Shown: positions 1,114 to 36,144, numbered from the stretch's first letter. The stretch is DNA of 43,574 nucleotides from Methanocella sp. (GCA_050261115.1 JBLNCY010000055.1:1-43574), one strand, 5' to 3'. Made by a program: numbers and translations. Notes: generated by a model not told the origin, from the sequence alone.

Positions 1114-2203
1114 TAGACCTTAGTCCCTATTACATACCGATTTTTCCTTTGGACATTTATCACTAACTGATCCGATTTTAGATAATTAATTTTCCAGCTA
1201 TACGAAAGTTAACCAATCCGCTAACAACATCAGTCATAACATCGTAATGTTTGAGGCGGTTCCTAAACTCATCAGCCCATATACGAAACTTTTTCACCCT
1301 AGAATACGTATGCTCCACAACCACCCTCTCCTTCGACAACGCCTTATTGAAAGCCTTCTGCTCCTCTGAAAGCTCCTCTGCCTTGACACCTATTTTGCCT
1401 CGTCCAGGATTTTTCCTCTTGATAGGCAACACGCAGTTCAGTTTAGGATAATCATCCTTTATTCCAAGATAGCCCAAATCAAAATATTGAAGCACTCTAT
1501 CAGGCAAATATGGGTGGCTATGCTTGTAGAGAGCGTAGTCATGCATGCTTCCCCTAACATGACTTGTCTTATGCACGATTAGGCCTTGTTTATTCACAGT
1601 GAACTGAGTCTTTACGGTGTGTTTCTTTCTTTTGCCGCTGTAGTGTGTCTTACGTTTACGCTTGCCATGTGGTCGCGGGATTTCTTGCTCGGTTGCATCC
1701 AAGAAAGCCTTAAAGCTTGGAAACATTGCTTCAATTTCCTCAACCGACTGTAGCCGCCTGACCTTGTCATGCTCCAATTTTGGCAGAGGTAGAACCTCTC
1801 TAACCAGAGGCTCTAGTTTTCTGATGCTTTTGAGCACGCTGGTTTGGCTGATACAGAAGAGGTAGCCTAAAAGTGTTGATGACGGATACATATGGTAGTA
1901 AATGAGGAGCATGAGTAAGCGGTCTGTTAGGGAGAGGCGAAATGGGTGGCCTGCGCCGACTGCTCTTTTTCTATTCTCTCGCTTTAGCCGTTTTTCTTCA
2001 AAGGCGGGGTATTTCTCGTTTATCCTTTGGTTTAGGGTGTCGAATTCTTGTAGTTGGAGGCCTGAAAAATTCCTAAAATGCAGGGGATTTTTAGATAATG
2101 CTCTGTAATTTAGCATGCAAACAGCTCAAAAGCCAAATATTGGGCTCATATGCTAATAAAACCTTCGTTTCAGCCTTAAAACGTTAATTGAAACTAAGGT
2201 CTA
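1114..2203 (-). mobile_element. IS5-family (ISL2-like) insertion sequence
   Basis: Terminal inverted repeats TAGACCTTAGT (1114-1124) and ACTAAGGTCTA (2193-2203), extending imperfectly to about 19 bp, bracket one transposase ORF; the outer TA is the probable target-site duplication. Confidence 0.88.
1178..2116 (-). CDS. IS5-family DDE transposase (HTH_Tnp_4 + DDE_Tnp_4 type)
   Basis: N-terminal helical region (LSLTDRLLMLLIYY); catalytic-type motifs LDATEQ, YSGKRKKHTVK, FDLGYLG and ERVVVEH. Confidence 0.92.
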   Translation of the reverse strand: MLNYRALSKNPLHFRNFSGLQLQEFDTLNQRINEKYPAFEEKRLKRENRKRAVGAGHPFRLSLTDRLLMLLIYYHMYPSSTLLGYLFCISQTSVLKSIRKLEPLVREVLPLPKLEHDKVRRLQSVEEIEAMFPSFKAFLDATEQEIPRPHGKRKRKTHYSGKRKKHTVKTQFTVNKQGLIVHKTSHVRGSMHDYALYKHSHPYLPDRVLQYFDLGYLGIKDDYPKLNCVLPIKRKNPGRGKIGVKAEELSEEQKAFNKALSKERVVVEHTYSRVKKFRIWADEFRNRLKHYDVMTDVVSGLVNFRIAGKLII

Positions 2204-7633: not shown

Positions 7634-8743
7634 TTAGGCTGATGGGGCGTGAGGGGTAATGGGAGGAGAGGGTGGCATGTTTTGTGGTTTTTCGCGTGAG
7701 AAGATGAGGCTTGTTGATTTGACTACCTGTGGAACCCCGATGAGGTCTTCGATGATGAGGAGTCCGCGTGCAACTATTGCGAATGCGCCTGCGGTGGCTG
7801 GGGGTACGCCTAGGAGGCCAAGGACGCCGATTATGGCAAATTCTTGTACACCGATTCCTGCGGGAGTGATTGGTACAAATGCTAGCGCGGTTACGAGTGG
7901 GTGAATCAGGAAATAGGTAATCCAGGGTATGTCTGTTATGCCAAGTGCTAAACCCAAAAAGTACCATTCTAACCCTTTAAGGAGCCAACATATCATTGTG
8001 AAGCCCAAGATCGAGGGAATAGAGTTTTTTGTGCTGTGAGAGCTTTCTTTGTATTCTTCTAGTTTTCCGATTAGTTTTCCGGTAAAGCGTTTTAGGAAGC
8101 GCCAGTTTGCGATGCGATCAAAGAGGCCGATGGCGCGTTTTGACCATGTGAATGCAGCCAGCACAATGGCGCCTGTAAGCATTAGAGCAATACCGAGGCT
8201 TGCGGCGACTATGCCTATGTTTATTCCAAAAATGCTTCCTTTGAAGACTTCATCCCAGGTGGCCATTGGAACGATGTTGACAAGTAAGAGGACCGCGCCT
8301 ACACCGCCAGCGACTTTGACTAGGAACTCTATGGTTTGTATACCAAGAATCGCTGAGAGACTTTTTGAGGTGGAGACATTTTGGTCTTTTAGGTATAGGG
8401 GTGTGAGCATGTATCCTGAACGTCCAGGGGTGACGTCGCTTGTCAACATACCTGCATACTGGGCGAGGAGCGTTTTGCCAAAGGAGGTTTTGATTCCGTC
8501 TTTTGCCAGCACTCTCTGAAGCCGCACAGCAAAGAAGACGTTTATTCCAAAGTACATCACAAACGCCAAAAGCAAATACTCAAGCTTAATGCCAATTAAT
8601 TCATTAAGGAGCGAGTCTAAGCCGACGTACCATAGCAACGCGGCGAAGATTGCCACCATACAAACGATTTGTAGAGCATATTTGAGGAATCTCTTTGAGG
8701 AGTTCTTTTGCTGTGCCTGTTGCGGGAGGTGCGGATTCGTCAT
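7634..8743 (-). CDS. Lysylphosphatidylglycerol-synthase TM-domain (flippase-like, UPF0104) membrane protein
   Basis: Multi-TM protein with VTPGRSG and VPITPAGIGVQE motifs. Confidence 0.85.
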   Translation of the reverse strand: MTNPHLPQQAQQKNSSKRFLKYALQIVCMVAIFAALLWYVGLDSLLNELIGIKLEYLLLAFVMYFGINVFFAVRLQRVLAKDGIKTSFGKTLLAQYAGMLTSDVTPGRSGYMLTPLYLKDQNVSTSKSLSAILGIQTIEFLVKVAGGVGAVLLLVNIVPMATWDEVFKGSIFGINIGIVAASLGIALMLTGAIVLAAFTWSKRAIGLFDRIANWRFLKRFTGKLIGKLEEYKESSHSTKNSIPSILGFTMICWLLKGLEWYFLGLALGITDIPWITYFLIHPLVTALAFVPITPAGIGVQEFAIIGVLGLLGVPPATAGAFAIVARGLLIIEDLIGVPQVVKSTSLIFSREKPQNMPPSPPITPHAPSA

Positions 8744-9005: not shown

Positions 9006-9175
9006 GATGTTGCCCAAGTTTTGAATGTGAAATGACCGTATTAACTTAACCATTTTTGCTGGCGATTTGGCATGGATAGGAATTGTAACTGGCCCGGTGT
9101 GATTGTGGAGACGGGGGGTTTCTGGTAAGGTATAAGAGTGATTAAGCAGTAGAACCATTGGAAGGGAGTTAATCG

Positions 9176-9469
9176 ATGGGTCACCTGATTAGACAGGTTA
9201 GAGTGGCTGTTTTTGCTTTTTTCTTGGTTTGTTTTGTTGGGTTAGGCGCTGTTTGTGTTGCGTCTGCTCAACCTGCAACGGTATCTGCTGAGGCACAACA
9301 ACCCAAGTTAGAGGCTAGTATGAGCGTTGATTTTGTAGGGGTTCCAGAGTTTTCAAGTGTTGGCCTGGTGATGTGGGTTGCGGTTACTTTTGCGGCTGTA
9401 GTCATTGTGATGTTTTGGCTGTTGAACCCTAAGGGGTTAAGCATGGTTAGAGACCCAGGCCATCTCTGA
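9176..9469 (+). CDS. Small secreted protein with PEF-CTERM-like sorting motif
   Basis: Signal peptide, short polar linker, VPEF immediately before a TM helix; GGGAG RBS. Confidence 0.65.
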   Translation: MGHLIRQVRVAVFAFFLVCFVGLGAVCVASAQPATVSAEAQQPKLEASMSVDFVGVPEFSSVGLVMWVAVTFAAVVIVMFWLLNPKGLSMVRDPGHL

Positions 9470-9707: not shown

Positions 9708-10412
9708 ATGTCAGTGGTATCTGGAATTGCTAATCCGTTTCTCGGAGCGTTCGCGAGCGGTTTAGTGTTCGGTCTCGCTTACTGCACGGCCTCATGTTTG
9801 CCTGTGGTAGCCGGCTACATTGCAGGTATCGGTTCTGGTTTTAAGCAGAGTGTCCGCATCACGTTGGTGTTTAATGCTGGACGCGTGGTAGCTTACAGTT
9901 TAATTGGCGCATTAATTGGCATGTTCGGCGGCGTTCTTACTTTTTTTGTCTCCGAAGAGGCTATCGCGCCGTTTCAGGTTTATGCCTCGGTCGCATTCGG
10001 CTTAGCTACAGCGGCTATAGGCGTTTACCTTATGCTTCAAGTAAGAAAAACAAAAACCGGTTGTGAATGCAGTCAACCGCAAGTGGCAGCGGCGACCAAC
10101 CGGATGCAGCGTTACGGCGTAGACTTCGGCGCCTTCACATTAGGATTCACTAGGGGGCTAATCATATGCGCACCTCTAATTCTGCTCCTCTCAACCTCGT
10201 TTACGTTGGTTGATGCGGCGGGAAGTGTAGGTATTGCGTTCCTGTTTGGGTTAGGCACAACCATCTCGCCTATTCTGCTTTTGGGCGGCGTGACGGGGTG
10301 GCTTCTAAATAAGGCGCCGCTTTTTCGAAAATGGATATCAATAGCGGGCGGCATAGTACTACTCTTAATGGGTATAGTATCAGTTTATACAGCGTTAACT
10401 CAAGTGATATGA
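9708..10412 (+). CDS. DsbD_2/CcdA-like (TauE/SafE-annotated) multi-TM protein
   Basis: 6 TM helices; CTASCLP, FNAGR..AY, LGFTRGLIICAPL and FLFGLGT motifs. Confidence 0.8.
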   Translation: MSVVSGIANPFLGAFASGLVFGLAYCTASCLPVVAGYIAGIGSGFKQSVRITLVFNAGRVVAYSLIGALIGMFGGVLTFFVSEEAIAPFQVYASVAFGLATAAIGVYLMLQVRKTKTGCECSQPQVAAATNRMQRYGVDFGAFTLGFTRGLIICAPLILLLSTSFTLVDAAGSVGIAFLFGLGTTISPILLLGGVTGWLLNKAPLFRKWISIAGGIVLLLMGIVSVYTALTQVI

Positions 10413-10425
10413 TGGGGAGAAGGGC

Positions 10426-11409
10426 ATGGCTGGAGAAATAATAGGCGACATACTTAGGCTAACAGTGCTAGGCGGGCTGGGCATCGCAGGCATAGTTGCG
10501 ATTCTGCTCTGGAAAAAGAACCTAGCAACCCGCGTAACGTTCCTGCGATTTGTCATTCAGGCAGTCGCAGCCGCCGCAATCTTTTACGTCTTCTCATACA
10601 CCATACCCATGCTCTACGCGTTGTTGTTTATCTTTATTGCTTCGATCTTTCTTGGCCGCTTCTACTGCGGCTGGCTCTGCCCATTAGGCTTAATCCTTGA
10701 TCTAGAAAGCCTTCTTAGGCGAGCACTCAAAGTAAGACACCGAATAATCCCCGACAAACTAAACATAGCACTCCACAAAGGGCGCTACCTAATCCTGCTT
10801 GTCTTCCTACTCATACCCATAGCATTCTGGATTTCCGACCCCCAAGAAATAATGGTTTCCCCCCTAATGGCACAGCTACTCGCGGGACATTACCGGGTGT
10901 ACAACTTAATTCTTGATCCCATGATTCCCTTCGTCGTTCCCTGGAGTGGCTCAGGAACAATCGCATTGCTTGACGTGAACTTTTCTTTCCCCTATGCCCA
11001 AAACATCATAACCTTCACAAATGAAACCATAGGCCCCTTCCTCGCAATCGCTTTTGTCGCCGTAGTCTTAGTTGGCGGGTTCCTTATCCGAAGGGTCTGG
11101 TGCCGCTTCTGCCCCACAGGCGTCTCAATAGCTGCCCTTAACCAATTCAAGGCTTTCAAGGCCCTTCCATTCTTATACGTTGATAAGGATGAGAAGAAAT
11201 GCACCAAATGTGGCGTCTGCAAACGTGTATGCACTGTGCAAGTTAACGAGGTGTATGAGCAGAAGGGTGGCAAAATCGGCACTTCACAATGTATGCTCTG
11301 CGCTAGGTGTGTTGAGATGTGCCCCTATGAGGATACGTTGAAACTGAAGTTTGGTAACAAGACCGTGTTTCGTTCAAGAAACTGGTTAGAACAACCGAGG
11401 ACTGAATGA
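10426..11409 (+). CDS. NapH/MauN-type membrane 4Fe-4S protein
   Basis: TM helices, GRFYCGWLCPLG and RVWCRFCPTG motifs, plus two C-terminal ferredoxin motifs CTKCGVCKRVC and CMLCARCVEMCP. Confidence 0.9.
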   Translation: MAGEIIGDILRLTVLGGLGIAGIVAILLWKKNLATRVTFLRFVIQAVAAAAIFYVFSYTIPMLYALLFIFIASIFLGRFYCGWLCPLGLILDLESLLRRALKVRHRIIPDKLNIALHKGRYLILLVFLLIPIAFWISDPQEIMVSPLMAQLLAGHYRVYNLILDPMIPFVVPWSGSGTIALLDVNFSFPYAQNIITFTNETIGPFLAIAFVAVVLVGGFLIRRVWCRFCPTGVSIAALNQFKAFKALPFLYVDKDEKKCTKCGVCKRVCTVQVNEVYEQKGGKIGTSQCMLCARCVEMCPYEDTLKLKFGNKTVFRSRNWLEQPRTE

Positions 11410-11419
11410 GGAGAATGAG

Positions 11420-12751
11420 ATGAAAAATCAAACCCCTGAAAGAAGATATTTGCCTGAAGTTTCCCCCAAGGAAATGGAAGAACTAAGAACCACTGTGAAA
11501 GCTGCCAGCCAAAGAATCATAGCCGACAACATCGAGCGCATGAAAAAAGCTGACCCCCACCGCCCAGAAGCTATGAAGTACTTTGATGACGTCGCTAACC
11601 TCTTTGGCAAACGTCAACAGGAAATCGAGGCAGAAAAAGCCAAGGGCAAAAAAGTCATCGGGTACATGTGCCTCTTCGCCCCCACCGAACTCATAACCGC
11701 CGCAGACGCCATACCCGTCCGAGTTAACTCTGGCTGGTATGATACCTCAAAACTCGGCGACCGCGTTGTACCAGTCGAGGTTTGTCCAGTTATCCGCTCC
11801 ACCATCGGAGCCAAAATGATTCAACTCTCACCGTTCCTTGAACAAAGCGACGCACTCATAAGTGTCTTAACCTGCGATGGCATGACTAAACTCAGCGAAA
11901 TCCTAAGCGACCAAAAAACCATCTGGGGCATGAACATACCACGCGTAAAAGACTCCGCGCAATCCCTAAGATTCTGGAACGACGAAATCAGAGCCATGAA
12001 GAAACAGATCGAAGAATTCACCGGCAACAAGATTGACCGCAAAAGCCTAAAAGAAGCCATAGAAATCAGCCACCGCGCAACCAGAGTCTTCCGCCGACTT
12101 CAAGAGCTCCGCAAGGGCAACCCCGTCATAATGGGCCGAGACGCTATGCTAGTTAACCAAGCCTACCAATGGGATGACAAGGTACGCTGGACAGAAAACG
12201 CTGAAAAACTCTGTAAAGAACTCGAAGAACGCGCGGAACGCAAGGATTGGGTTGTTAGCCCCGATACACCCCGCGTTATGGTTACAGGAACCCCAATGTT
12301 TTGGCCAGACAACTGGAAGCTACCCACACTGGTCGAAGAAGGCAACCCGCCAGGCATCATCGTGGCAGACGAACAATGCAGCGGCGAACGCATACTAAAC
12401 GACCCCATCGGAGTAGACGAATGGAGCATGGATGACATGCTGAACGCCATAAGCGAACGCTACCTCATGGCATCCACCTGCCCCTGCTTCACAAGCAAAG
12501 ACGGCAACGAAGACCGCATCAACTGGTTACTCACAAAAATCAAGGACTGGAACATCCAAGGCGTCATCTACTACGTCATCCGCGGATGCATGCTCTATGC
12601 CATGGAATACAGCCGCGTAAAAAAGACCTTAGACAAAATTAATGTCCCAGTTTACTATTTGGATACAGAATACACAAGGGAAGACGTCGGTCAAATGAAA
12701 ACCCGTGTAGAGGCTTTCCTTGAAATGCTAAATGCGAGAGTGGATTTCTAA
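11420..12751 (+). CDS. 2-hydroxyacyl-CoA dehydratase-family protein, double-cubane cluster protein (DCCP)-like
   Basis: Six Cys positions matching the DCCP pattern (GYMC, EVCPVIRS, TCDG, EQCSGER, TCPCF, GCMLY) and C-terminal DVGQMKTRVEAFLEM. Confidence 0.85.
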   Translation: MKNQTPERRYLPEVSPKEMEELRTTVKAASQRIIADNIERMKKADPHRPEAMKYFDDVANLFGKRQQEIEAEKAKGKKVIGYMCLFAPTELITAADAIPVRVNSGWYDTSKLGDRVVPVEVCPVIRSTIGAKMIQLSPFLEQSDALISVLTCDGMTKLSEILSDQKTIWGMNIPRVKDSAQSLRFWNDEIRAMKKQIEEFTGNKIDRKSLKEAIEISHRATRVFRRLQELRKGNPVIMGRDAMLVNQAYQWDDKVRWTENAEKLCKELEERAERKDWVVSPDTPRVMVTGTPMFWPDNWKLPTLVEEGNPPGIIVADEQCSGERILNDPIGVDEWSMDDMLNAISERYLMASTCPCFTSKDGNEDRINWLLTKIKDWNIQGVIYYVIRGCMLYAMEYSRVKKTLDKINVPVYYLDTEYTREDVGQMKTRVEAFLEMLNARVDF

Positions 12752-13534
12752 ATGATAACAGCCGGAATGGACCTAGGAACCCAACGAGTCAAAGCCGTAG
12801 TCCTAAAAGACGGCGTAGTCGTTGGCAGAGCACAGGCTTTCTCTGGGTTTGACCCCACAAAAGCCGCCGAAGAAGCCATAAACGAAGCCCTAAAACAGGC
12901 AAACCTAAAACTAAGCGACGTACAGCACTTCGCCGCAACCGGCTCAGCAATGAGCATGGCACCCTACGAACACACCACCGTCTCTATGATGAGTGCCGAC
13001 GCCAAAGCAGGCGTGCACCTTATCCCCACCGCCCGAACCATAATTGACGTGGGCGCGGAAGAAGCAAGAGCCGTAAAATGCGACGAACGAGGAGTAATGG
13101 CAGACTTTGTAGTCAACGAACGCTGCGCCGCCGGAGCAGGAGCATTCATCGAAGCCATGGCACGAGCGTTAGAAGTTAAACTCGAAGACATGGGACCACT
13201 CTCCCTGCAAGCCGAGCGCGCAAGCCCCATCAACGCTTCATGCGTCATCTTCGGCGAATCCGACGTCGTCTCTCTAATTCACCGCCAAGAATCCAAACCC
13301 GAAATCAGCCGAGCAGTATTTGACGCCATGGCCGACCGCGTATCCTCCATGATTCACCGCTTAGGCATAAACCCCGACGTCGTCCTAGTCGGCGGCGTCG
13401 CAAAAGACATCGGGTTTGTTACATCGCTAAACCGCAAACTGGGCTTGACAGTAAAAATCCCCGAATACCCAGAATACGCAGGGGCACTTGGTGCAGCATT
13501 AATCGCCACATCACGCGTTAAAGGAGGCGCCTAA
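12752..13534 (+). CDS. ASKHA ATP-dependent activator, BzdP-like subunit
   Basis: GMDLG, DVGAEEARAV, NERCAAGAGAFIEAMARALE, CVIFGESDVVSLIH and GALGAAL. Confidence 0.85.
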   Translation: MITAGMDLGTQRVKAVVLKDGVVVGRAQAFSGFDPTKAAEEAINEALKQANLKLSDVQHFAATGSAMSMAPYEHTTVSMMSADAKAGVHLIPTARTIIDVGAEEARAVKCDERGVMADFVVNERCAAGAGAFIEAMARALEVKLEDMGPLSLQAERASPINASCVIFGESDVVSLIHRQESKPEISRAVFDAMADRVSSMIHRLGINPDVVLVGGVAKDIGFVTSLNRKLGLTVKIPEYPEYAGALGAALIATSRVKGGA

Positions 13535-13535
13535 A

Positions 13536-14435
13536 TTGACAGAGCCCGTTAAAGAAGAATTCTGGCGCTGGCAAGAATACCACCGCATTGTCCCCGGCAA
13601 GAAATGGAGCAAAAACGACATCATCACAGCAGGCGTTGACGTGGGTTCAGTCGGCTCCAAAGCAGCCATCATGGTTAACGGCGAAGCCTACGCATGGGGC
13701 ATCACACGCACCGGCTCAAACAGCCCCGAATCCGCCAAAAAAGCCCTCGACTACGCCCTACAAGACACAGGCCTCAAAGTAAGCGACCTCAACTACATCG
13801 TCGGCACCGGCTATGGCCGAGTAAACGTCCCGATGGCCAACAAAGCCATCACCGAAATCGCCTGCCATGCCAAAGGCGCCAACTACATCTGGGGCCCCAA
13901 AGTCCGCACCGTCCTAGACGTCGGCGGACAAGACATTAAAGCCATCAAAATCGACGAAACCGGCCGCGTAGTCAGCTTCCTCATGAACGACAAATGCGCC
14001 GCAGGCACAGGACGAGGCATGGAAGTCTTCGCCGATCTGCTCCAAATCCCCATCGAAGAAATAGGCGACATCTCCCTAAAAGTGGAAAAAGAACCCGACC
14101 CCGTCAGCTGCACATGCGTAGCCTTCGCAAAGACCGAAGCTATGGGCTTACTCCGCAAAGGCTGGTCCAAAGAAAAAGTCCTAGCCGCATACACACGCGC
14201 TATGGCTGTACGCATGGCTAACCTCATCAACCGCGTCGGCTTAGAACCCGAACTCGTCGTCACAGGCGGCCAATCCAAAAATATCGGTATAGTCAGCCGC
14301 ATTGAAGTCATTTTGGGACAGAAAACATTGCCGATGCCTCGATGGCGCGAAGACGGCTTAGACCCCATGGTTGCAGGCGCCCTTGGTGCCGCGTCGTTGG
14401 CGAAGTCCCTATACGAGAAGGCACAGAAGACTTAG
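13536..14435 (+). CDS. ASKHA ATP-dependent activator, BzdQ-like subunit
   Basis: N-terminal EFWRW, GVDVGSVGSK, GTGYGR, TEIACHAKGA, DVGGQD and MNDKCAAGTGRGMEVFADLL. Confidence 0.87.
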   Translation: MTEPVKEEFWRWQEYHRIVPGKKWSKNDIITAGVDVGSVGSKAAIMVNGEAYAWGITRTGSNSPESAKKALDYALQDTGLKVSDLNYIVGTGYGRVNVPMANKAITEIACHAKGANYIWGPKVRTVLDVGGQDIKAIKIDETGRVVSFLMNDKCAAGTGRGMEVFADLLQIPIEEIGDISLKVEKEPDPVSCTCVAFAKTEAMGLLRKGWSKEKVLAAYTRAMAVRMANLINRVGLEPELVVTGGQSKNIGIVSRIEVILGQKTLPMPRWREDGLDPMVAGALGAASLAKSLYEKAQKT

Positions 14436-14444
14436 GTGAGGCGG

Positions 14445-14732
14445 ATGATCACGCATTATGGCTACATCGACGGCTCAGGCGAATTCTACATAATCGTAGA
14501 TTCCGACCGATGCAGCGGATGCGGCGAATGCGTGCAAGCCTGCCCACAAAACGCCCTCACCCTTATTACTGAATTTATTGATTTGGAAGACAAGACCGTA
14601 GCGGCAATCACCGAAGAGCACCGTAAAAAGATAAAATATACCTGCGCCGCCTGCAAACCCGAAAACAAGCAGACACCCTGCATCAAAGCCTGCAAAACGG
14701 AAGCGTTAAGCTGCGTCTGGAAACCACTATAA
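14445..14732 (+). CDS. Ferredoxin, BzdM-like
   Basis: MITHYGYIDGSGEFYI N-terminus, CSGCGECVQACP and an atypical second cluster CAAC-x8-CIKAC; GGTGAGG RBS before the ATG at 14445. Confidence 0.85.
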   Translation: MITHYGYIDGSGEFYIIVDSDRCSGCGECVQACPQNALTLITEFIDLEDKTVAAITEEHRKKIKYTCAACKPENKQTPCIKACKTEALSCVWKPL

Positions 14733-14772: not shown

Positions 14773-15723
14773 TTACCGTGCTCTACGTCTTAGCAGGAAT
14801 ATTGTTACGAGCAATACAGCTGCGAACACTATTACTGCAACTATTATGAGTGTCCAAAGGTCAAGGTCCATTCCTGGTCCATCAGGGGTCGGTGACGGCG
14901 TCGCTGTAAAAGTAGGTGAAGTGGTGGGGGGCGGCGTTGGAGTGGTTGTCGTAATTGTCGGCGTTGGCGTGGGTGAGGTTGCGGCTACTGCAAGAGTAAA
15001 GTTATAGCTGTCCGGTGCGAAAACAGAGTTTTCGCTGCTACTGTGCAATCTAATGTTCCATCGGTGGCTTCCGTTTTGGCTAAAAAGCACATGGATAACG
15101 TTTTCTTCGTCCAGAACTATCGCGGTCTGGTTATCTTCAACGCGAATATCGTCTATATAGAGCGAGGCGCCTGTGAGATGATAATCTGAGCTGTTTATTT
15201 TTGGAATGAAAACAAAGCTGACATTGAAGCTATTAGTTATGGTGGCATCGTTCTGGGGGGAAACGAGCTCGACTGCGATTTCTTCGGCCATCTCGACTGT
15301 TAAGGTGCGTTCTTCGGATTGAATTATTGCGTTCTCGCTGTTTTCCAGTTTAATGGACCACAGATAGGTTCCGTTTTTGCTAATTTGGTGATAAATCGTG
15401 TTGTTCTGCCAAGGCACTATTTCTGTTTGGTTGTAGGAGACTCTTTCGCCGTTTATCCAGAGGGATGCACCTGTAATTTGGCCTGATCCGTTTATTGCTG
15501 GGTAGAAGATGAAGCTGACGTTTTTTGCGGTGTCAAATGTTGTGTCGTCTATGGGTTCTTGGAGGGTGATGGACATGTTTGAGGGGGAGGTTGTTTCTTG
15601 GAAGATTGTTATGGGGTTAGTTTCTTCTGAGGTTGATGGATCACTGATTACTGTTGGGACAAAGAAGCAGCTTACTAATAACATAAAGACGGTTATGCCC
15701 AAGTATGCTTGTTTATGGTTCAT
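14773..15723 (-). CDS. Surface glycoprotein with two tandem Ig-like repeats, Pro/Thr linker and C-terminal anchor
   Basis: Two internal repeats of about 100 aa (NVSF.F.P.IN...TGASL.I....V..NQT.IV...NG...W.I.L), many N-x-S/T sequons, PT-rich linker, TM helix and RRRAR; alternative TTG start at 15741. Confidence 0.82.
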   Translation of the reverse strand: MNHKQAYLGITVFMLLVSCFFVPTVISDPSTSEETNPITIFQETTSPSNMSITLQEPIDDTTFDTAKNVSFIFYPAINGSGQITGASLWINGERVSYNQTEIVPWQNNTIYHQISKNGTYLWSIKLENSENAIIQSEERTLTVEMAEEIAVELVSPQNDATITNSFNVSFVFIPKINSSDYHLTGASLYIDDIRVEDNQTAIVLDEENVIHVLFSQNGSHRWNIRLHSSSENSVFAPDSYNFTLAVAATSPTPTPTITTTTPTPPPTTSPTFTATPSPTPDGPGMDLDLWTLIIVAVIVFAAVLLVTIFLLRRRAR

Positions 15724-15952
15724 AAGCGCTAAATCTCTCAAATGTATATTTATAACTTTCTTAGTTCACAGATTAGAACAGTCGGCGTTAGCATGCTATA
15801 GGGCGATTTTTTTGTTTAATAGACGAAAAAGTTGATGATTTATTAGATTTTTTGCTTGCTTGTTGCATTTTTTTGTTTTTTGTTGCAGAGCTTTTTTGGG
15901 TTGTTGATGTGTTTTCTGTTGAGCGCTCTGTTAATGTTTATAAGTATGACAC

Positions 15953-16783
15953 GTGACATATCTATTGGTGGATAGAACGAAAAAACAAGTAGTAGCCACA
16001 CTCTTAATTCTCACCACAACCATCCTCTTAACAGCAACACCCAACACAACAGCAACCAACCAATGGCCAATAACCGTAACAAACCCCACCCAACAACAAA
16101 CCACACTAACCTACGACCAACTAACCACACTACCCGCCACCAGCGTATACGCAGAACTTACCTGCTACGGCTCGCAAGTAATAAGCGGACTATGGACAGG
16201 AGCAAAAATATCAGACATACTCACCCTCGCTAACGCAGACATATCCGGTGGTTCGGTATCCTTCTCAGCCCAAGACGGTTACAACATAGTTATACCCATG
16301 GAAACCGCAATGCAACCAGAAGTAATCCTAGCATACAAACTAGAATCTGATACGTTACAAGAAACATACCGACTAGTAATACCAGAAGCAAACGGTAACG
16401 TCTGGATAGCCATGGTAACATCAATAACCGTAATAGATGCCGGTGCCCCCGCTGTTCCCGAAAAATCAGCAAACCTCTTCGACGCCACCAAACTATCCGA
16501 AAACAACAACCAAAATACCTCTCCGCAGCAAACGCCAACCAAGACACCCCAGCCGGCTACACCCAAACCCACACAAGACACGACAGTCATTCAGCCAACT
16601 CCTACTCCAACAAACCAGGCCACGCCATCCCCCGCCACAACGATCCCCCAGAAGGATGAGCCCCAGAACACCATTACTTTAGAACCTGCTTACTTAGCTG
16701 TTTTTGCAGTGATAGCGGTGGCCCTCTCAGTGGGGCTGATAGGGGTGGCTAAACAGAAACAAGGCAAAAGTAGCGTCCACTAA
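15953..16783 (+). CDS. Extracellular molybdopterin-dependent oxidoreductase-domain (sulfite-oxidase/MsrP-like) protein, membrane anchored
   Basis: Signal peptide; LTCYG...WTGAKISDIL...FSAQDGY...ILAY...YRLVIP...GNVW; PT-rich linker; C-terminal TM helix. Confidence 0.8.
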   Translation: MTYLLVDRTKKQVVATLLILTTTILLTATPNTTATNQWPITVTNPTQQQTTLTYDQLTTLPATSVYAELTCYGSQVISGLWTGAKISDILTLANADISGGSVSFSAQDGYNIVIPMETAMQPEVILAYKLESDTLQETYRLVIPEANGNVWIAMVTSITVIDAGAPAVPEKSANLFDATKLSENNNQNTSPQQTPTKTPQPATPKPTQDTTVIQPTPTPTNQATPSPATTIPQKDEPQNTITLEPAYLAVFAVIAVALSVGLIGVAKQKQGKSSVH

Positions 16784-17404
16784 TCGGTTTTTTATGTTGT
16801 ACATCAAGAATGAGTATACTGGGGCAGTTGCCGCGATACTTCTGCGATTCGCTAACCATACTGCTTAGCGCCCTATGTGGTTGTCAGACAAAATGGGGGT
16901 ATAACATAACTCAGTGGCTCTCCAATGCAAGAAAAGTGAGGACTTCGAAACCTTAGCTACTGGAACACAGATCGGCTCATATAACTATAAAGAAGAAGAG
17001 CAACTCCTTCAAGCTGAAGCTTTGAAGGGAAACCAAGTAGTTTCTTATAATGGTCTGTTTCCCGATTTTTTGGCCTTACTCAATTCGTTTCCTGTCAAAG
17101 GATCTTCATGTTTTCGAAGTCATTTTAGCCGTCAGCTAAACAGCTGTTTAGCTTACGCTAAATCCATATTTCTACTACAGATCCCCGTTTCATAAGCGAT
17201 ATATCCCTTTTAGGCCCATTTTAGGCTGTTAGTGATTGGAGAACCGGTTAAGGTTGAAGGCAAGCCGGTTGCAGACCTTTTCCGTTTTCAAAGCATTCTC
17301 CTTTCTCCTCAAATGACGGAAGGCCAAAGGCTTACCAACACACTTGCTCCGATAATCCAACACTAACCAACCTTCTCAGAGACCCCAAAGTTGTAGGTTT
17401 CATC

Positions 17405-17974
17405 TTATAGTTTACGGCTGATTTCCACGCCGTCCCCACCCACCTGAATATAACGGCTCTCATAACCGCCGCCAGACCGAACATAACGAAGATAATCCGC
17501 CATCTGATCCGCAAAAACTCCAGCGTTATCCGCAAACACCACCGTACCCGCATGTAGCTTGGGTTCAGCGAGTTTTAAGTACTGCAGGTACTCAGACTTT
17601 TCCGCGTCGATAAAAACAAAATCAAATGTGCCTTCAAGCGTTGGGATTACTTCAAGCGCGTTGCCGGTTAGGATTTTGACATGGGCTGGGATGTTGGCTT
17701 TCACGATATTGTCCCCTGCCTGTTTAGCCTCATCTCGATGAATCTCAATAGTTACCAACTCGGAGTCAGGAGGCATCTCTTTCCCCATCAGAATCGCCGA
17801 GTACCCAATCAAGGTACCCACCTCAAGAACACGCCTAGGCCGGGTTTTTCGAACCTCTTCTGCAAGGTAGCGGCCTTTTTGGGGTCCGATGATGGGTAAG
17901 AATATGTTTTCCGCTTGAGCCTCAATTTTGCGCAGAACCAAATCTGCGCTGCTAACAGAGGTTGTTTGGGTCAT
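17405..17974 (-). CDS. O-methyltransferase (Methyltransf_3, YrrM/TrmR-like family)
   Basis: VLEVGTLIGYSA, TIEI, FDFVFIDAEK and VFADN. Confidence 0.9.
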   Translation of the reverse strand: MTQTTSVSSADLVLRKIEAQAENIFLPIIGPQKGRYLAEEVRKTRPRRVLEVGTLIGYSAILMGKEMPPDSELVTIEIHRDEAKQAGDNIVKANIPAHVKILTGNALEVIPTLEGTFDFVFIDAEKSEYLQYLKLAEPKLHAGTVVFADNAGVFADQMADYLRYVRSGGGYESRYIQVGGDGVEISRKL

Positions 17975-18534
17975 GGGGGCACCTTGATTTTATCTATAAA
18001 CCGTGCTTGAAGCTTAGCTATCTTGGGTGCAATTACGGCTTGACAGTAGGGTTCTCGGGGGTGCAATTTGTAGTAATCTTTGTGGTAGGTTTCTGCCTTG
18101 TAGAATTGCTTGAGGGGTTCAAGCGTTGTAACTATGGGTTGGTCATAGATGCCTTCTCGATTAAGCTCCTCGATGAGTTCCTGCGCTATTTGCTTTTGCT
18201 GTTGATTTTGGTAGAAGATGGCTGACCGGTACTGGGTGCCTATATCTGCGCCTTGCCTGTTAAGCTGGGTAGGGTCATGCATAGCAAAAAAGATCTCTAA
18301 AATCTCCTTGTAGGTGATGACTTTGGGGTCATAGAATATCTGCGCGGCCTCGACGTGGCCTGTTTGGCCTGTGGAGACCTCGCTGTAGGTGGGTTTGACT
18401 GTGGTTCCGCCTGTATAGCCAACCTCGATTCGCTCAACGCCTCGTATGATGCTAAACGCGGCTTCGATGCACCAAAAGCACCCTGCCGCCAACGTGGCAA
18501 CCTCAAGGCCGCCATTGTCCGATTGTTGACTCAT
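17971..18534 (-). CDS. msrA: Peptide-methionine (S)-S-oxide reductase
   Basis: AGCFWC, GYTGG, HDPTQLNRQGAD.GTQYRSAIF and AETYHKDYY. Confidence 0.97.
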   Translation of the reverse strand: MSQQSDNGGLEVATLAAGCFWCIEAAFSIIRGVERIEVGYTGGTTVKPTYSEVSTGQTGHVEAAQIFYDPKVITYKEILEIFFAMHDPTQLNRQGADIGTQYRSAIFYQNQQQKQIAQELIEELNREGIYDQPIVTTLEPLKQFYKAETYHKDYYKLHPREPYCQAVIAPKIAKLQARFIDKIKVPP

Positions 18535-35077: not shown

Positions 35078-35647
35078 ATGACAACTCTGTCAAACCAAAA
35101 AACCAGCAGCAACCTAAGAATAGCCACCACAGACCTAGTCCTAACAGCAATGTTTGCAAGCTTAGGTTTGGCAACAAAAGAGCTACTCTACCCCCTCATC
35201 GGCCCACTAATAAGCACCGCCAACATCCCCACAGGCGGCGTCTTAGGTGGATTATACATGATGTGGATAGTAATCCCCTACGGCTTAATCGGCAAACCCG
35301 GCGTCGCCACACTAGTAGCACTCATCCAAGCATGCATAAGCCTAATTCTACCATACGGTAACTTTGGCATACTCGCGTTTGTGATTTATCTTGGGCCCGG
35401 CTTAGTCATGGATGCCGTTTTCCTGCTCATGCGACATAAAGCTTGCTGCTTAGGATGTTGTATGATAGCGGCTGCCGTCGCAAACACGGTTGGGACGTTG
35501 CTTGTCGGCGGTTTAATCCTGATGCTACCTGCGGTTATTCTTGCATTTTTAGGCGTTGTAGCGGCAATTAGCGGATGCATGGGTGGATTCATTGCGAACA
35601 TGCTCCTAAAAAGGGTTAAGAATGGATTCTGGAGAAGGAAAACGTGA
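35078..35647 (+). CDS. ECF transporter S-component-like membrane protein
   Basis: 189 aa, about 6 TM helices, DLVLTAMFASLG, GLIGKPGVATL and PGLVMD. Confidence 0.75.
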   Translation: MTTLSNQKTSSNLRIATTDLVLTAMFASLGLATKELLYPLIGPLISTANIPTGGVLGGLYMMWIVIPYGLIGKPGVATLVALIQACISLILPYGNFGILAFVIYLGPGLVMDAVFLLMRHKACCLGCCMIAAAVANTVGTLLVGGLILMLPAVILAFLGVVAAISGCMGGFIANMLLKRVKNGFWRRKT

Positions 35648-36144
35648 AAAAATTAACTAAAATAGCGTTAGTTGCGCTTGTTTTATTAGTTATCGCAGTT
35701 ATTCCGCTTTACTATTACACACGCCCCGACGCCTCGCAGCCAACGGGAATGCTGCAAATCAAAGGTAACGTAGCCAACCCAGCTAACTTGAGCTACACAG
35801 AGATCACTGAGTATCCGTCAATCACCTTGCAAGTAACCGTTAAAGGAAACCAGGGAGGCAACGGCGACTTCACCTACACAGGCGTCACCCTAAAAACGCT
35901 CCTAGAACAAGCAGAAATCAACAGCAACGCCACATCTATCTTTATCCAAGCATCTGACGGCTATGGAACCACCCTAACCCTAGAGGAAGCAAACAAAGAC
36001 AGCGCCTTTATAGCCTACAAGAAAGACGGCGCAGCTATGACCCCACTTACTGAGGGCGGGGAAGGTCCATTCCGCCTGATTATCGCTGACGACGAATTTG
36101 CCCAGCGGTGGATTCGTGGAGTAGCAGCAATAGTGGTCAGCTAA
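35644..36144 (+). CDS. Membrane-anchored molybdopterin-oxidoreductase-domain protein lacking Cys
   Basis: N-terminal TM; IKGNV.NP..LSY, YTGVTLKTLLE, ASDGY, IAY..DG, GPFRLII and RWIRGV; GTGA overlap with the S-component gene. Confidence 0.8.
   Translation: MKKLTKIALVALVLLVIAVIPLYYYTRPDASQPTGMLQIKGNVANPANLSYTEITEYPSITLQVTVKGNQGGNGDFTYTGVTLKTLLEQAEINSNATSIFIQASDGYGTTLTLEEANKDSAFIAYKKDGAAMTPLTEGGEGPFRLIIADDEFAQRWIRGVAAIVVS

Follow-up and report, generated by a model that had tools for sequence, protein, structure and literature searches.

A DCCP paralogue with a Bzd-type activating module and membrane partners: an archaeal operon that is probably membrane-attached and not a benzoyl-CoA reductase

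Introduction

What kind of reductase is encoded where a DCCP-type large subunit shares an operon with a benzoyl-CoA reductase-like ATPase pair, a ferredoxin and two membrane redox proteins? The question is raised by positions 9708-14732 of a stretch of 43,574 nucleotides deposited as Methanocella sp. (GCA_050261115.1, JBLNCY010000055.1:1-43574), the whole of which we call the window. DCCPs, the double-cubane proteins, are widespread ATP-driven reductases with nitrogenase-like reactivity. A prediction made from the sequence alone (hereafter the original prediction) had described the operon as a chimera between DCCP and bzd-type benzoyl-CoA reductase. We find that the joining of a Bzd-type activating module with a DCCP-type acceptor and with membrane partners is a real, conserved feature, and that the operon is probably membrane-attached and not a benzoyl-CoA reductase.

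Two characterised systems frame the comparison. Homodimeric DCCPs are viewed as the archetype of the family, and BzdN of the bzd-type enzyme has an [8Fe-9S] cluster that serves as an electron relay (PMC11971306).

The operon and its large subunit

Six open reading frames on the plus strand fill positions 9708-14732 with intergenic gaps of 13, 10, 0, 1 and 0 nucleotides, bearing out in every coordinate the six co-oriented genes with gaps of 0-13 nucleotides that the original prediction had described. They encode, in order, a CcdA-like (DsbD_2) six-helix membrane protein (9708-10412, 234 residues; PF13386, E = 3.8e-22); a membrane Fe-S protein of the NapH/NosR family (10426-11409, 327 residues; Fer4_5 twice and a dicluster domain); a DCCP-like subunit with a predicted double-cubane [8Fe-9S] cluster (11420-12751, 443 residues; HGD-D, E = 1.5e-93); the BzdP-type ATPase ("archerase") subunit actA (12752-13534, 260 residues; BcrAD_BadFG, E = 4.6e-46); actB, a canonical archerase subunit of BzdQ type with an N-terminal extension (13536-14435, 299 residues; BcrAD_BadFG); and a 2x[4Fe-4S]-type ferredoxin (14436-14732, 98 residues; Fer4 families). 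The operon is bounded by a divergent gene upstream (7634-8743, minus strand) and a convergent gene downstream (14773-15741, minus strand).

The best NCBIfam model for the 443-residue protein is double_cubane (NF040772), at 336.6 bits, and the next models score more than 230 bits lower. The protein reaches 102.3 bits on bzdN (TIGR03190; cut-off 453.8), 91.6 bits on HadC (cut-off 700) and 37.5 bits on HadB (cut-off 750), and the HadB/HadC-type alpha and beta pair of a 2-hydroxyacyl-CoA dehydratase is absent, only a single subunit being encoded. Among solved structures the best match is DCCP (6ENO/7YYL; E = 1e-77, 265 bits), followed by BzdN (8e-25), HadC (5e-16) and MbdN (4.5e-12). Cysteines 84, 122, 152, 265, 320, 354, 356 and 390 show no variation among 81 sequences, and each of the eight aligns with a cysteine of DCCP from Carboxydothermus hydrogenoformans (6ENO/7YYL). 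The published DCCP motif consists of seven cysteines, six of them cluster ligands and one near the cluster opening (PMC7317905). All seven are present here, and the motif is also invariant in a 22-row alignment that includes sister clades; the six-cysteine pattern given in the original prediction should thus be corrected to the complete motif plus an eighth cysteine. Assignments of cysteines to subclusters, and channel positions, are taken from the 2020 and 2022 DCCP papers.

A search of 1.84 billion representative sequences returned 3003 relatives at E ≤ 1e-3, of which the nearest full-length ones, fragments from the protein's own clade aside, are at most 45% identical. For each of the 113 full-length representatives scanned, double_cubane is the top-scoring NCBIfam model (170-524 bits); representatives shorter than 340 residues and two more were left out. 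A quick IQ-TREE analysis (112 rows and 412 columns, with the root placed on seven representatives that lean towards BzdN/HadC) assigns the window protein to a 9-row clade of Bathyarchaeia (support 100), itself part of a 14-row clade of the DCCP radiation (support 97) that is completed by P0122, P0123, P0125, P0126 and P0129; the outgroup did not fall cleanly on one side, with one row misplaced, and many rows have an unusual composition. Both the match to 6ENO/7YYL and this position set the protein apart from the single-cubane dehydratases, in line with the original prediction. Judged by these comparisons, the large subunit is a DCCP paralogue and not a BzdN, a BzdO or a dehydratase, and the double-cubane [8Fe-9S] cluster and the dependence on ATP are predicted by homology.

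Like C. hydrogenoformans DCCP with its reductase DCCP-R (6ENO, 7YYL, 7YZM, 7YZQ), the operon has one type of dehydratase-fold subunit with the full cysteine motif, has an ASKHA-type [4Fe-4S] ATPase encoded next to it, and has no gene for a second dehydratase-fold partner. The whole genome (94.85% complete, 66 contigs) contains only two dehydratase-fold genes. The operon differs from the C. hydrogenoformans system in adding a dedicated ferredoxin, a NapH-like partner and a CcdA-like protein. Elsewhere in the family, DCCP-like domains are fused to an FHA domain (P0145), to a PucR-type HTH (P0211) or to archerase domains at either end (P0126, P0141 and P0221).

The activating module

Counterparts of the two ATPase genes and the ferredoxin gene are found in five-gene clusters of BzdN, BzdO, P, Q and ferredoxin, which occur in eight other Bathyarchaeia genomes of the same taxonomic order (loci L166 and L168-L174; genomes G077, G155, G110, G139, G156, G142, G153 and G125). 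The G077 cluster scores 441.8 bits on bzdN (cut-off 453.8), 547.7 bits on bzdO (cut-off 448.6) and, for Q, 376.6 bits (cut-off 380.2); a crotonase gene lies upstream of it and a GltD/HoxU-like oxidoreductase gene downstream. actB is 61% identical to the Q subunit of G077 and reaches 365.1 bits on the bzdQ model TIGR03192 (cut-off 380.2), in a match that spans positions 5-292 of the 293 in the model. For actA, the identity is 51% to P of G077 and 60% to P of G153, and the ferredoxin is 53% identical to that of G077 over 94 residues (E = 3e-38) and 62% to that of G153. The DCCP-like protein, by comparison, is 29% identical to the BzdN of G077 and 21% to its BzdO.

A careful IQ-TREE analysis of archerases (38 sequences, 274 columns, midpoint root) places actA in the P clade (support 100/99) and actB in the Q clade (100/100). 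Within each of these clades the copies from DCCP clusters are monophyletic, and the Bzd-type P subunit of G153 is sister to the actA group (100/96). This tree has long branches among the metagenome rows and is rooted at the midpoint only, so that the module may have been exchanged in either direction.

By identity (51-61%) and by clade, then, the activators are orthologous to archaeal P and Q, as the original prediction had proposed in calling them BzdP/BzdQ-like, and with the orthologous ferredoxin and a large subunit so distant from BzdN its description of a chimera is directly supported. Its BzdM-like ferredoxin stands with respect to the ferredoxins of the archaeal Bzd-type clusters (53-62%), those clusters being the reference for all three comparisons. 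An initial view of actA as not BzdP-like, based on only 101.7 bits to solved MbdP, was overturned by the archaeal clusters. The likeness to BzdNOPQ with its ferredoxin BzdM (8S02; Mbd, 9GAI) and to the archaeal clusters lies in P, Q and ferredoxin, orthologous to the archaeal genes at 51-62%, whereas BzdO and the CoA-ester pathway genes are missing and the large subunit comes from the DCCP radiation.

Gene sets of this type are labelled BcrACD in databases and papers, and a 2025 review includes benzoyl-CoA reductase when it lists the genes of Bathyarchaeia for aromatic degradation (PMC12694404). One could read the operon as a class I (bzd-type) benzoyl-CoA reductase, perhaps a reduced or variant one: the JGI label of the large subunit is BcrC/BadD/HgdB, actB comes near the bzdQ cut-off, the P, Q and ferredoxin genes have their orthologues in true Bzd-type clusters, and a three-gene BcrACD cluster without BcrB has been reported from Bathyarchaeum tardum (PMC10477458). 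However, the active-site subunit with its [4Fe-4S]-OH2 cluster, BzdO or BcrB, was found neither in the operon nor in the 94.85%-complete genome by a search that recovered the control BzdO of G077 at 547.7 bits; the large subunit falls far short of the bzdN cut-off and is remote in sequence from archaeal BzdN; the true BzdN-BzdO-P-Q-ferredoxin clusters of related genomes look different; and benzoate inhibited the growth of B. tardum (PMC10477458). The window holds no benzoate-CoA ligase and no dch, had or oah gene, as the original prediction had noted, and the genome has 0 matches to dearomat_oah and dienoyl-CoA hydratase, while its AMP-ligases all remain below cut-off (best 256.1 bits against 375.25). 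We regard the benzoyl-CoA reductase reading as already contradicted and give it hardly any credence. The eight Bzd-type clusters are much better candidates for that activity.

The two ATPase subunits, which are 32% identical to each other, both keep the two invariant cysteines that bridge the [4Fe-4S] cluster (C125 and C164 in actA, C154 and C192 in actB). Their ATP sites differ. actB retains TGYGR, the Glu of the TEIACHAKGA motif and GGQD; actA has instead TGSAM, a Met in place of that Glu, and GAEE, changes that are conserved in 76 orthologues and occur also in the P subunit of G077 and in one ATPase of the sister locus L088. In an alignment, five of five solved archerases retain TGYGR and GGQ(D/T). 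Relative to DCCP-R, E69 aligns to the Met of actA, and G92, Q93, D94 and K96 align to A, E, E and R. In DCCP-R, residues 9-11 and 92-94 hold the phosphates, G92 and Q93 begin a hydrogen-bond network to the cluster, and D94 or E69 may be the base, the E69Q and E69N variants having about 10-fold lower ATPase activity (PMC9351452). From these substitutions we infer that actA is poor at binding or hydrolysing ATP; actA and actB would form a heterodimer, and the pair would have one catalytic site.

In the ferredoxin, cysteines 26, 29, 32, 36, 70, 73, 82 and 86 are invariant in 55 sequences. A PDB search with this protein returned generic polyferredoxin matches only, and the spacing of its second motif is presumably like that of Allochromatium-type ferredoxins.

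Conservation and expression of the operon

Synteny was assessed in the 80 best genome loci, whose large subunits are 72-92% identical to that of the window. All 80 come from metagenome-assembled genomes of Bathyarchaeia type, one of them labelled as a bacterium and probably mis-binned. Loci were counted as having room if they extend at least 2050 nucleotides downstream (n = 75) or at least 1800 nucleotides upstream (n = 78). actA and actB directly follow the DCCP-like gene in 75 of 75 such loci, and the ferredoxin gene is present in all 75. A NapH-like gene adjoins upstream in 65 of 78 and is found elsewhere in the locus in 3 more; a CcdA-like gene lies upstream in 65 of 78, and both membrane genes are present in 54. 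Because the four-gene core recurs in every related Bathyarchaeia locus with room, the arrangement is far beyond chance. In the class at large, 26 of 121 sampled genomes have any HGD-D match.

Six RNA-library runs contain 47-66% of the operon's sampled words. Four of these runs, each from a different study of digesters or sludges, yielded contigs across the operon with at least 99% identity to the window, and the contigs bridge four of the five gene junctions, namely those between the NapH-like and DCCP-like genes, the DCCP-like gene and actA, actA and actB, and actB and the ferredoxin gene. Gaps in contig coverage (e.g., at 9037-9273 in each of the four runs and over most of the first gene in three) do not indicate silence. 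The operon is probably expressed.

A second DCCP gene in the genome

The genome has two HGD-D genes and as many archerase genes. Outside the operon, the one HGD-D gene, on contig C25, is a true orthologue of DCCP, with 504.9 bits on double_cubane and 520 bits to 6ENO, as against the 265 bits of the window paralogue. Neither bzdN nor bzdO is present elsewhere in the genome as a real partner, a possibility that the original prediction had raised; its view that the operon has one dehydratase-fold gene only is likewise upheld, the other genomic copy being this canonical DCCP. In the segment L005:6655-10758, the C25 gene is flanked by a DsrE-like gene and selD, and a LysR regulator associated with selenium is encoded divergently. 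Given the very negative potential of the Se(0)/selenide couple, selenium reduction is a candidate role for the canonical DCCP. The legend of a preprint figure draws DCCP and DCCP-R among selenium-metabolism neighbours (PMC10418091). The same contig encodes a second NapH-like protein (L005:1184-2425, 413 residues), 35% identical to that of the window over 283 residues and with the same C-terminal tail; its gene is preceded by one for a 226-residue protein that has no assigned family and no likeness to the CcdA-like protein.

The canonical DCCP gene has no archerase gene of its own, the only two in the genome being those of the operon, and genome G102 repeats the pattern, with two DCCP-type genes and just two archerase genes, both in a window-type operon. 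Since the characterised DCCP-R is a homodimer (PMC9351452), the two ATPases might be separate homodimeric reductases, one for the window paralogue and one for the canonical DCCP on C25. But seven relatives have only one HGD-D gene, of the window type, and in each of them exactly two archerase genes lie next to one another beside it; the ATPase pair therefore serves the window-type protein and is not split between two DCCPs. The invariable presence of both ATPase genes in the loci with room argues in the same direction; a homodimer of actA, in which conserved residues of the ATP site are replaced, would probably hydrolyse ATP poorly; and actA and actB are orthologous to the P and Q subunits of heterotetrameric enzymes of benzoyl-CoA reductase type. 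A division of labour between two homodimers is thus very improbable, and a P/Q-type pair takes the place of the single gene that encodes homodimeric DCCP-R.

The membrane proteins and their link to the large subunit

The NapH-like protein has two Cys-Pro motifs after its membrane helices and a C-terminal 2x[4Fe-4S] domain (Fer4_5, E = 1.1e-13), and twelve cysteines are kept in about 95% of 72 sequences. In this layout it resembles the NapH/NosR/MauN/CcoG family. It scores 74.8 bits on the NapH/MauN model TIGR02163, far below the cut-off of 213, and 68.9 and 40.5 bits on the NapH and NosR equivalog models (cut-offs 234 and 1000); the original assignment as NapH/MauN-like is confirmed at family level. 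A NapH quinol dehydrogenase is not indicated, the score being under the cut-off and no nap genes lying in the window. Unlike the members of that family, it has no nap, nos or cco genes beside it, and its partner would be a cytoplasmic ATP-driven reductase.

Of the cysteines of the CcdA-like protein, C26, C30 and C154 are conserved in 94% or more of 67 sequences, and C119 is conserved in 90%. The AlphaFold2 model of the protein (mean pLDDT 80.8) has one real structural match, CcdA (5VKV; probability 1.00, TM-score 0.51/0.53, 22% identity, E = 8.7e-3); the other matches have TM-scores below 0.3, and none reaches an E-value of 0.001 or better. Together with the PF13386 match, the conserved cysteines and this fold agree with the CcdA/DsbD_2-like protein with membrane cysteines that had been predicted. 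It shares with CcdA the six-helix fold and conserved cysteines in the regions of the first and fourth helices, and differs in the extra spacing of its conserved cysteine pair (C26, C30) and in a loop cysteine. In the window, neither a thioredoxin-like partner nor one from cytochrome c maturation was seen. The protein may transfer electrons or bind a soft metal or metalloid.

The CcdA-like protein is linked to the operon by gene order only, whereas the NapH-like protein is linked to the DCCP-like protein by (i) adjacency in distant clades, (ii) a natural fusion and (iii) a model of the complex. Among the best 80 of 381 relatives found by a metagenome search with a sister-clade alignment, NapH-like genes lie directly upstream of DCCP-like genes that are at most 45% identical to that of the window (L087, L088, L090, L098, L128, L135 and L142), and a DsbD_2 gene is near the DCCP-like gene in three of these loci (L090, L098 and L128). 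L088 further encodes ApbE and a NosR-like protein with an FMN-binding domain. At L128:7463-9116, a nucleotidyltransferase/HEPN pair and an IS1595-type transposase lie between the DCCP-like gene and its ATPase gene. With these sister clades and 65 of 78 close loci for each gene, the membrane genes are conserved neighbours, as the original prediction expected. The fusion protein, P0198 (677 residues), begins with a NapH-like segment, 30% identical to residues 206-318 of the window protein (E = 9e-16), and continues with an HGD-D domain at 319-667. By contrast, no NapH-like or CcdA-like gene was found in the fetched stretch of any of the eight Bzd-type loci.

Modelling of the complex, which the original prediction had named as a check, gave ipSAE values of 0.63, 0.64 and 0.66 for the NapH-like and DCCP-like proteins, against 0.00 for the best of three controls. 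Among solved complexes 116 of 157 attain the mark used, and among mismatched pairs 2 of 215; these counts apply only roughly to our custom 22-row alignments. The runs share at least 95% of their contacts, and the pLDDT of the partner is at least 68. We know of no solved complex of these two families, so that a score learnt from known structures is unlikely. In the model, the interface comprises residues 256-268, 298-300 and 319-322 of the ferredoxin domain and the Lys/Arg-rich loop 99-105 on the NapH-like side, and residues 218-226, 328-351 and 365-372, flanking the cysteine ligands 320, 354 and 356, on the DCCP-like side. The docking site of DCCP-R is a different one, close to N111/R110 in the N-terminal domain and on the helix at the C-terminus (PMC9351452), and therefore the ATPase and the NapH-like protein could bind the DCCP-like protein at the same time. 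A "VDEW" segment in the interface was considered as a signature of NapH linkage and rejected, being common to a far larger clade and missing in P0198.

In our view this evidence makes it quite likely that the operon encodes an ATP-driven, very-low-potential reductase in which a Bzd-type activating module serves a DCCP-like acceptor docked on the NapH-like membrane protein. The membrane genes might alternatively be mere neighbours, the DCCP-like, P, Q and ferredoxin proteins working in solution as C. hydrogenoformans DCCP does. That DCCP is soluble (PMC7317905), and among the 78 loci with room upstream a NapH-like gene is not nearby in 10, a CcdA-like gene is missing in 13 and neither is present in 2. 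An adjacency that persists across clades at most 45% identical, the fusion, the score of the modelled complex (0.64) and the lack of both membrane genes at the Bzd-type loci argue against this alternative, which we consider improbable.

Several points nevertheless weigh against docking or against parts of the assignment. The locus counts just given mean that neither membrane partner is obligatory. Many other sister-clade loci have no NapH-like match, and several of the contigs are not long enough for a decision. P0198, a protein predicted from a metagenome, could have been merged from two genes in gene calling, and the modelled complex is 1:1, ignoring the expected DCCP homodimer and the metal clusters, so that the surface may serve otherwise. 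The large subunit lies 13.4 bits below the curated cut-off of NF040772 (350), and both the cluster types and the ATP dependence rest on homology. RNA-library contigs cannot prove a single transcript or exclude carried-over DNA, and only one of the four runs covers the first gene.

Surroundings of the operon

The window is archaeal DNA, as indicated by an encoded Arc_PepC_II peptidase. A scan with a sigma-70 promoter and terminator model, which does not suit archaea, gave the same numbers as shuffled sequences. Upstream, a 97-residue open reading frame (9176-9469) was rejected as part of the operon, having no counterpart among the 80 related loci. In 57 of these loci, a CARDB-domain surface protein of about 742 residues is encoded directly upstream of the CcdA-like gene on the same strand (e.g., L006); it is absent from the window, where an LPG-synthase-like gene on the opposite strand occupies its position. 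A DDE_Tnp_4-type transposase gene with an HTH_Tnp_4 domain lies at 1178-2116 (minus strand).

Downstream, the convergent gene at 14773-15741 encodes a membrane-anchored protein of 322 residues that is rich in Thr and Pro and matches no Pfam family; in two runs its RNA-library contigs have a far higher word depth than those of its neighbours. The window further encodes two membrane-anchored proteins with an Oxidored_molyb domain (15953-16783 and 35644-36144) and MsrA (17971-18534), and a homologue of the first of these comes after the operon in about 12 related loci. A 93-residue open reading frame at 16914-17195 resembles only the C-terminal part of a 193-residue protein with no assigned family, of a kind that comes after the operon in 47 of the 80 loci, and is probably a truncated remnant.

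Discussion

The components suggest how the enzyme would work. The activating module would be that of bzd-type benzoyl-CoA reductase, namely the ferredoxin and an ATPase heterodimer bridged by a [4Fe-4S] cluster, with actB as the catalytic, BzdQ-type subunit and actA as a BzdP-type subunit with a degenerate ATP site. The acceptor module would be the single DCCP paralogue, its C-terminal domain set onto the cytoplasmic ferredoxin domain of the NapH-like protein, and the CcdA-like thiol/disulfide membrane protein is usually encoded alongside. Electrons would pass from reduced ferredoxin to the bridging cluster of actA/actB and on to the double cubane, with ATP hydrolysed mainly at actB, and from there either to a small substrate or onward into the clusters of the NapH-like protein. 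What the comparisons show directly is the gene content and its families, the orthology of the P/Q/ferredoxin module, the conservation of the operon and the linkage of the NapH-like and DCCP-like genes; the cluster types, the heterodimer, the direction of electron flow and membrane docking in the cell belong to the proposed arrangement.

The last of these routes can be taken further. The double cubane may be an ATP-charged relay, as in BzdN, that feeds the NapH-like clusters, so that the chemistry would take place at or across the membrane with the CcdA-like protein participating; the NapH-like protein would then occupy the position of BzdO in benzoyl-CoA reductase, and the ATPase would have one site. 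This idea is suggested by an interface that flanks the cysteine ligands of the C-terminal domain, away from the site on the N-terminal domain where DCCP-R docks, and the predicted surface would suit a straight chain of clusters from the ATPase through the double cubane to the NapH-like protein. We hold the relay to be a tentative proposal and on balance unlikely. If true, the operon would encode a type of ATP-driven, membrane-bound reductase of low potential that has yet to be described.

No link of NapH-like proteins to double-cubane proteins is in print in the full-text literature searched, which does not cover subscription journals, and within the same scope the pairing of double-cubane proteins with Bathyarchaeia led only to the activation of methyl-coenzyme M reductase.

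Genes of the window type are routinely read as benzoyl-CoA reductase and taken as evidence for aromatic degradation by Bathyarchaeia, a reading that is unsupported for this type of cluster; true Bzd-type clusters of the same order can be distinguished by the presence of BzdO. Within one archaeal order, a single P/Q/ferredoxin module serves two acceptor modules, either BzdN/BzdO or a DCCP-like protein with its NapH-like partner, which illustrates clearly that low-potential electron activation has evolved by modules. A DCCP subfamily tied to specific membrane partners provides a concrete handle on the natural function of DCCPs.

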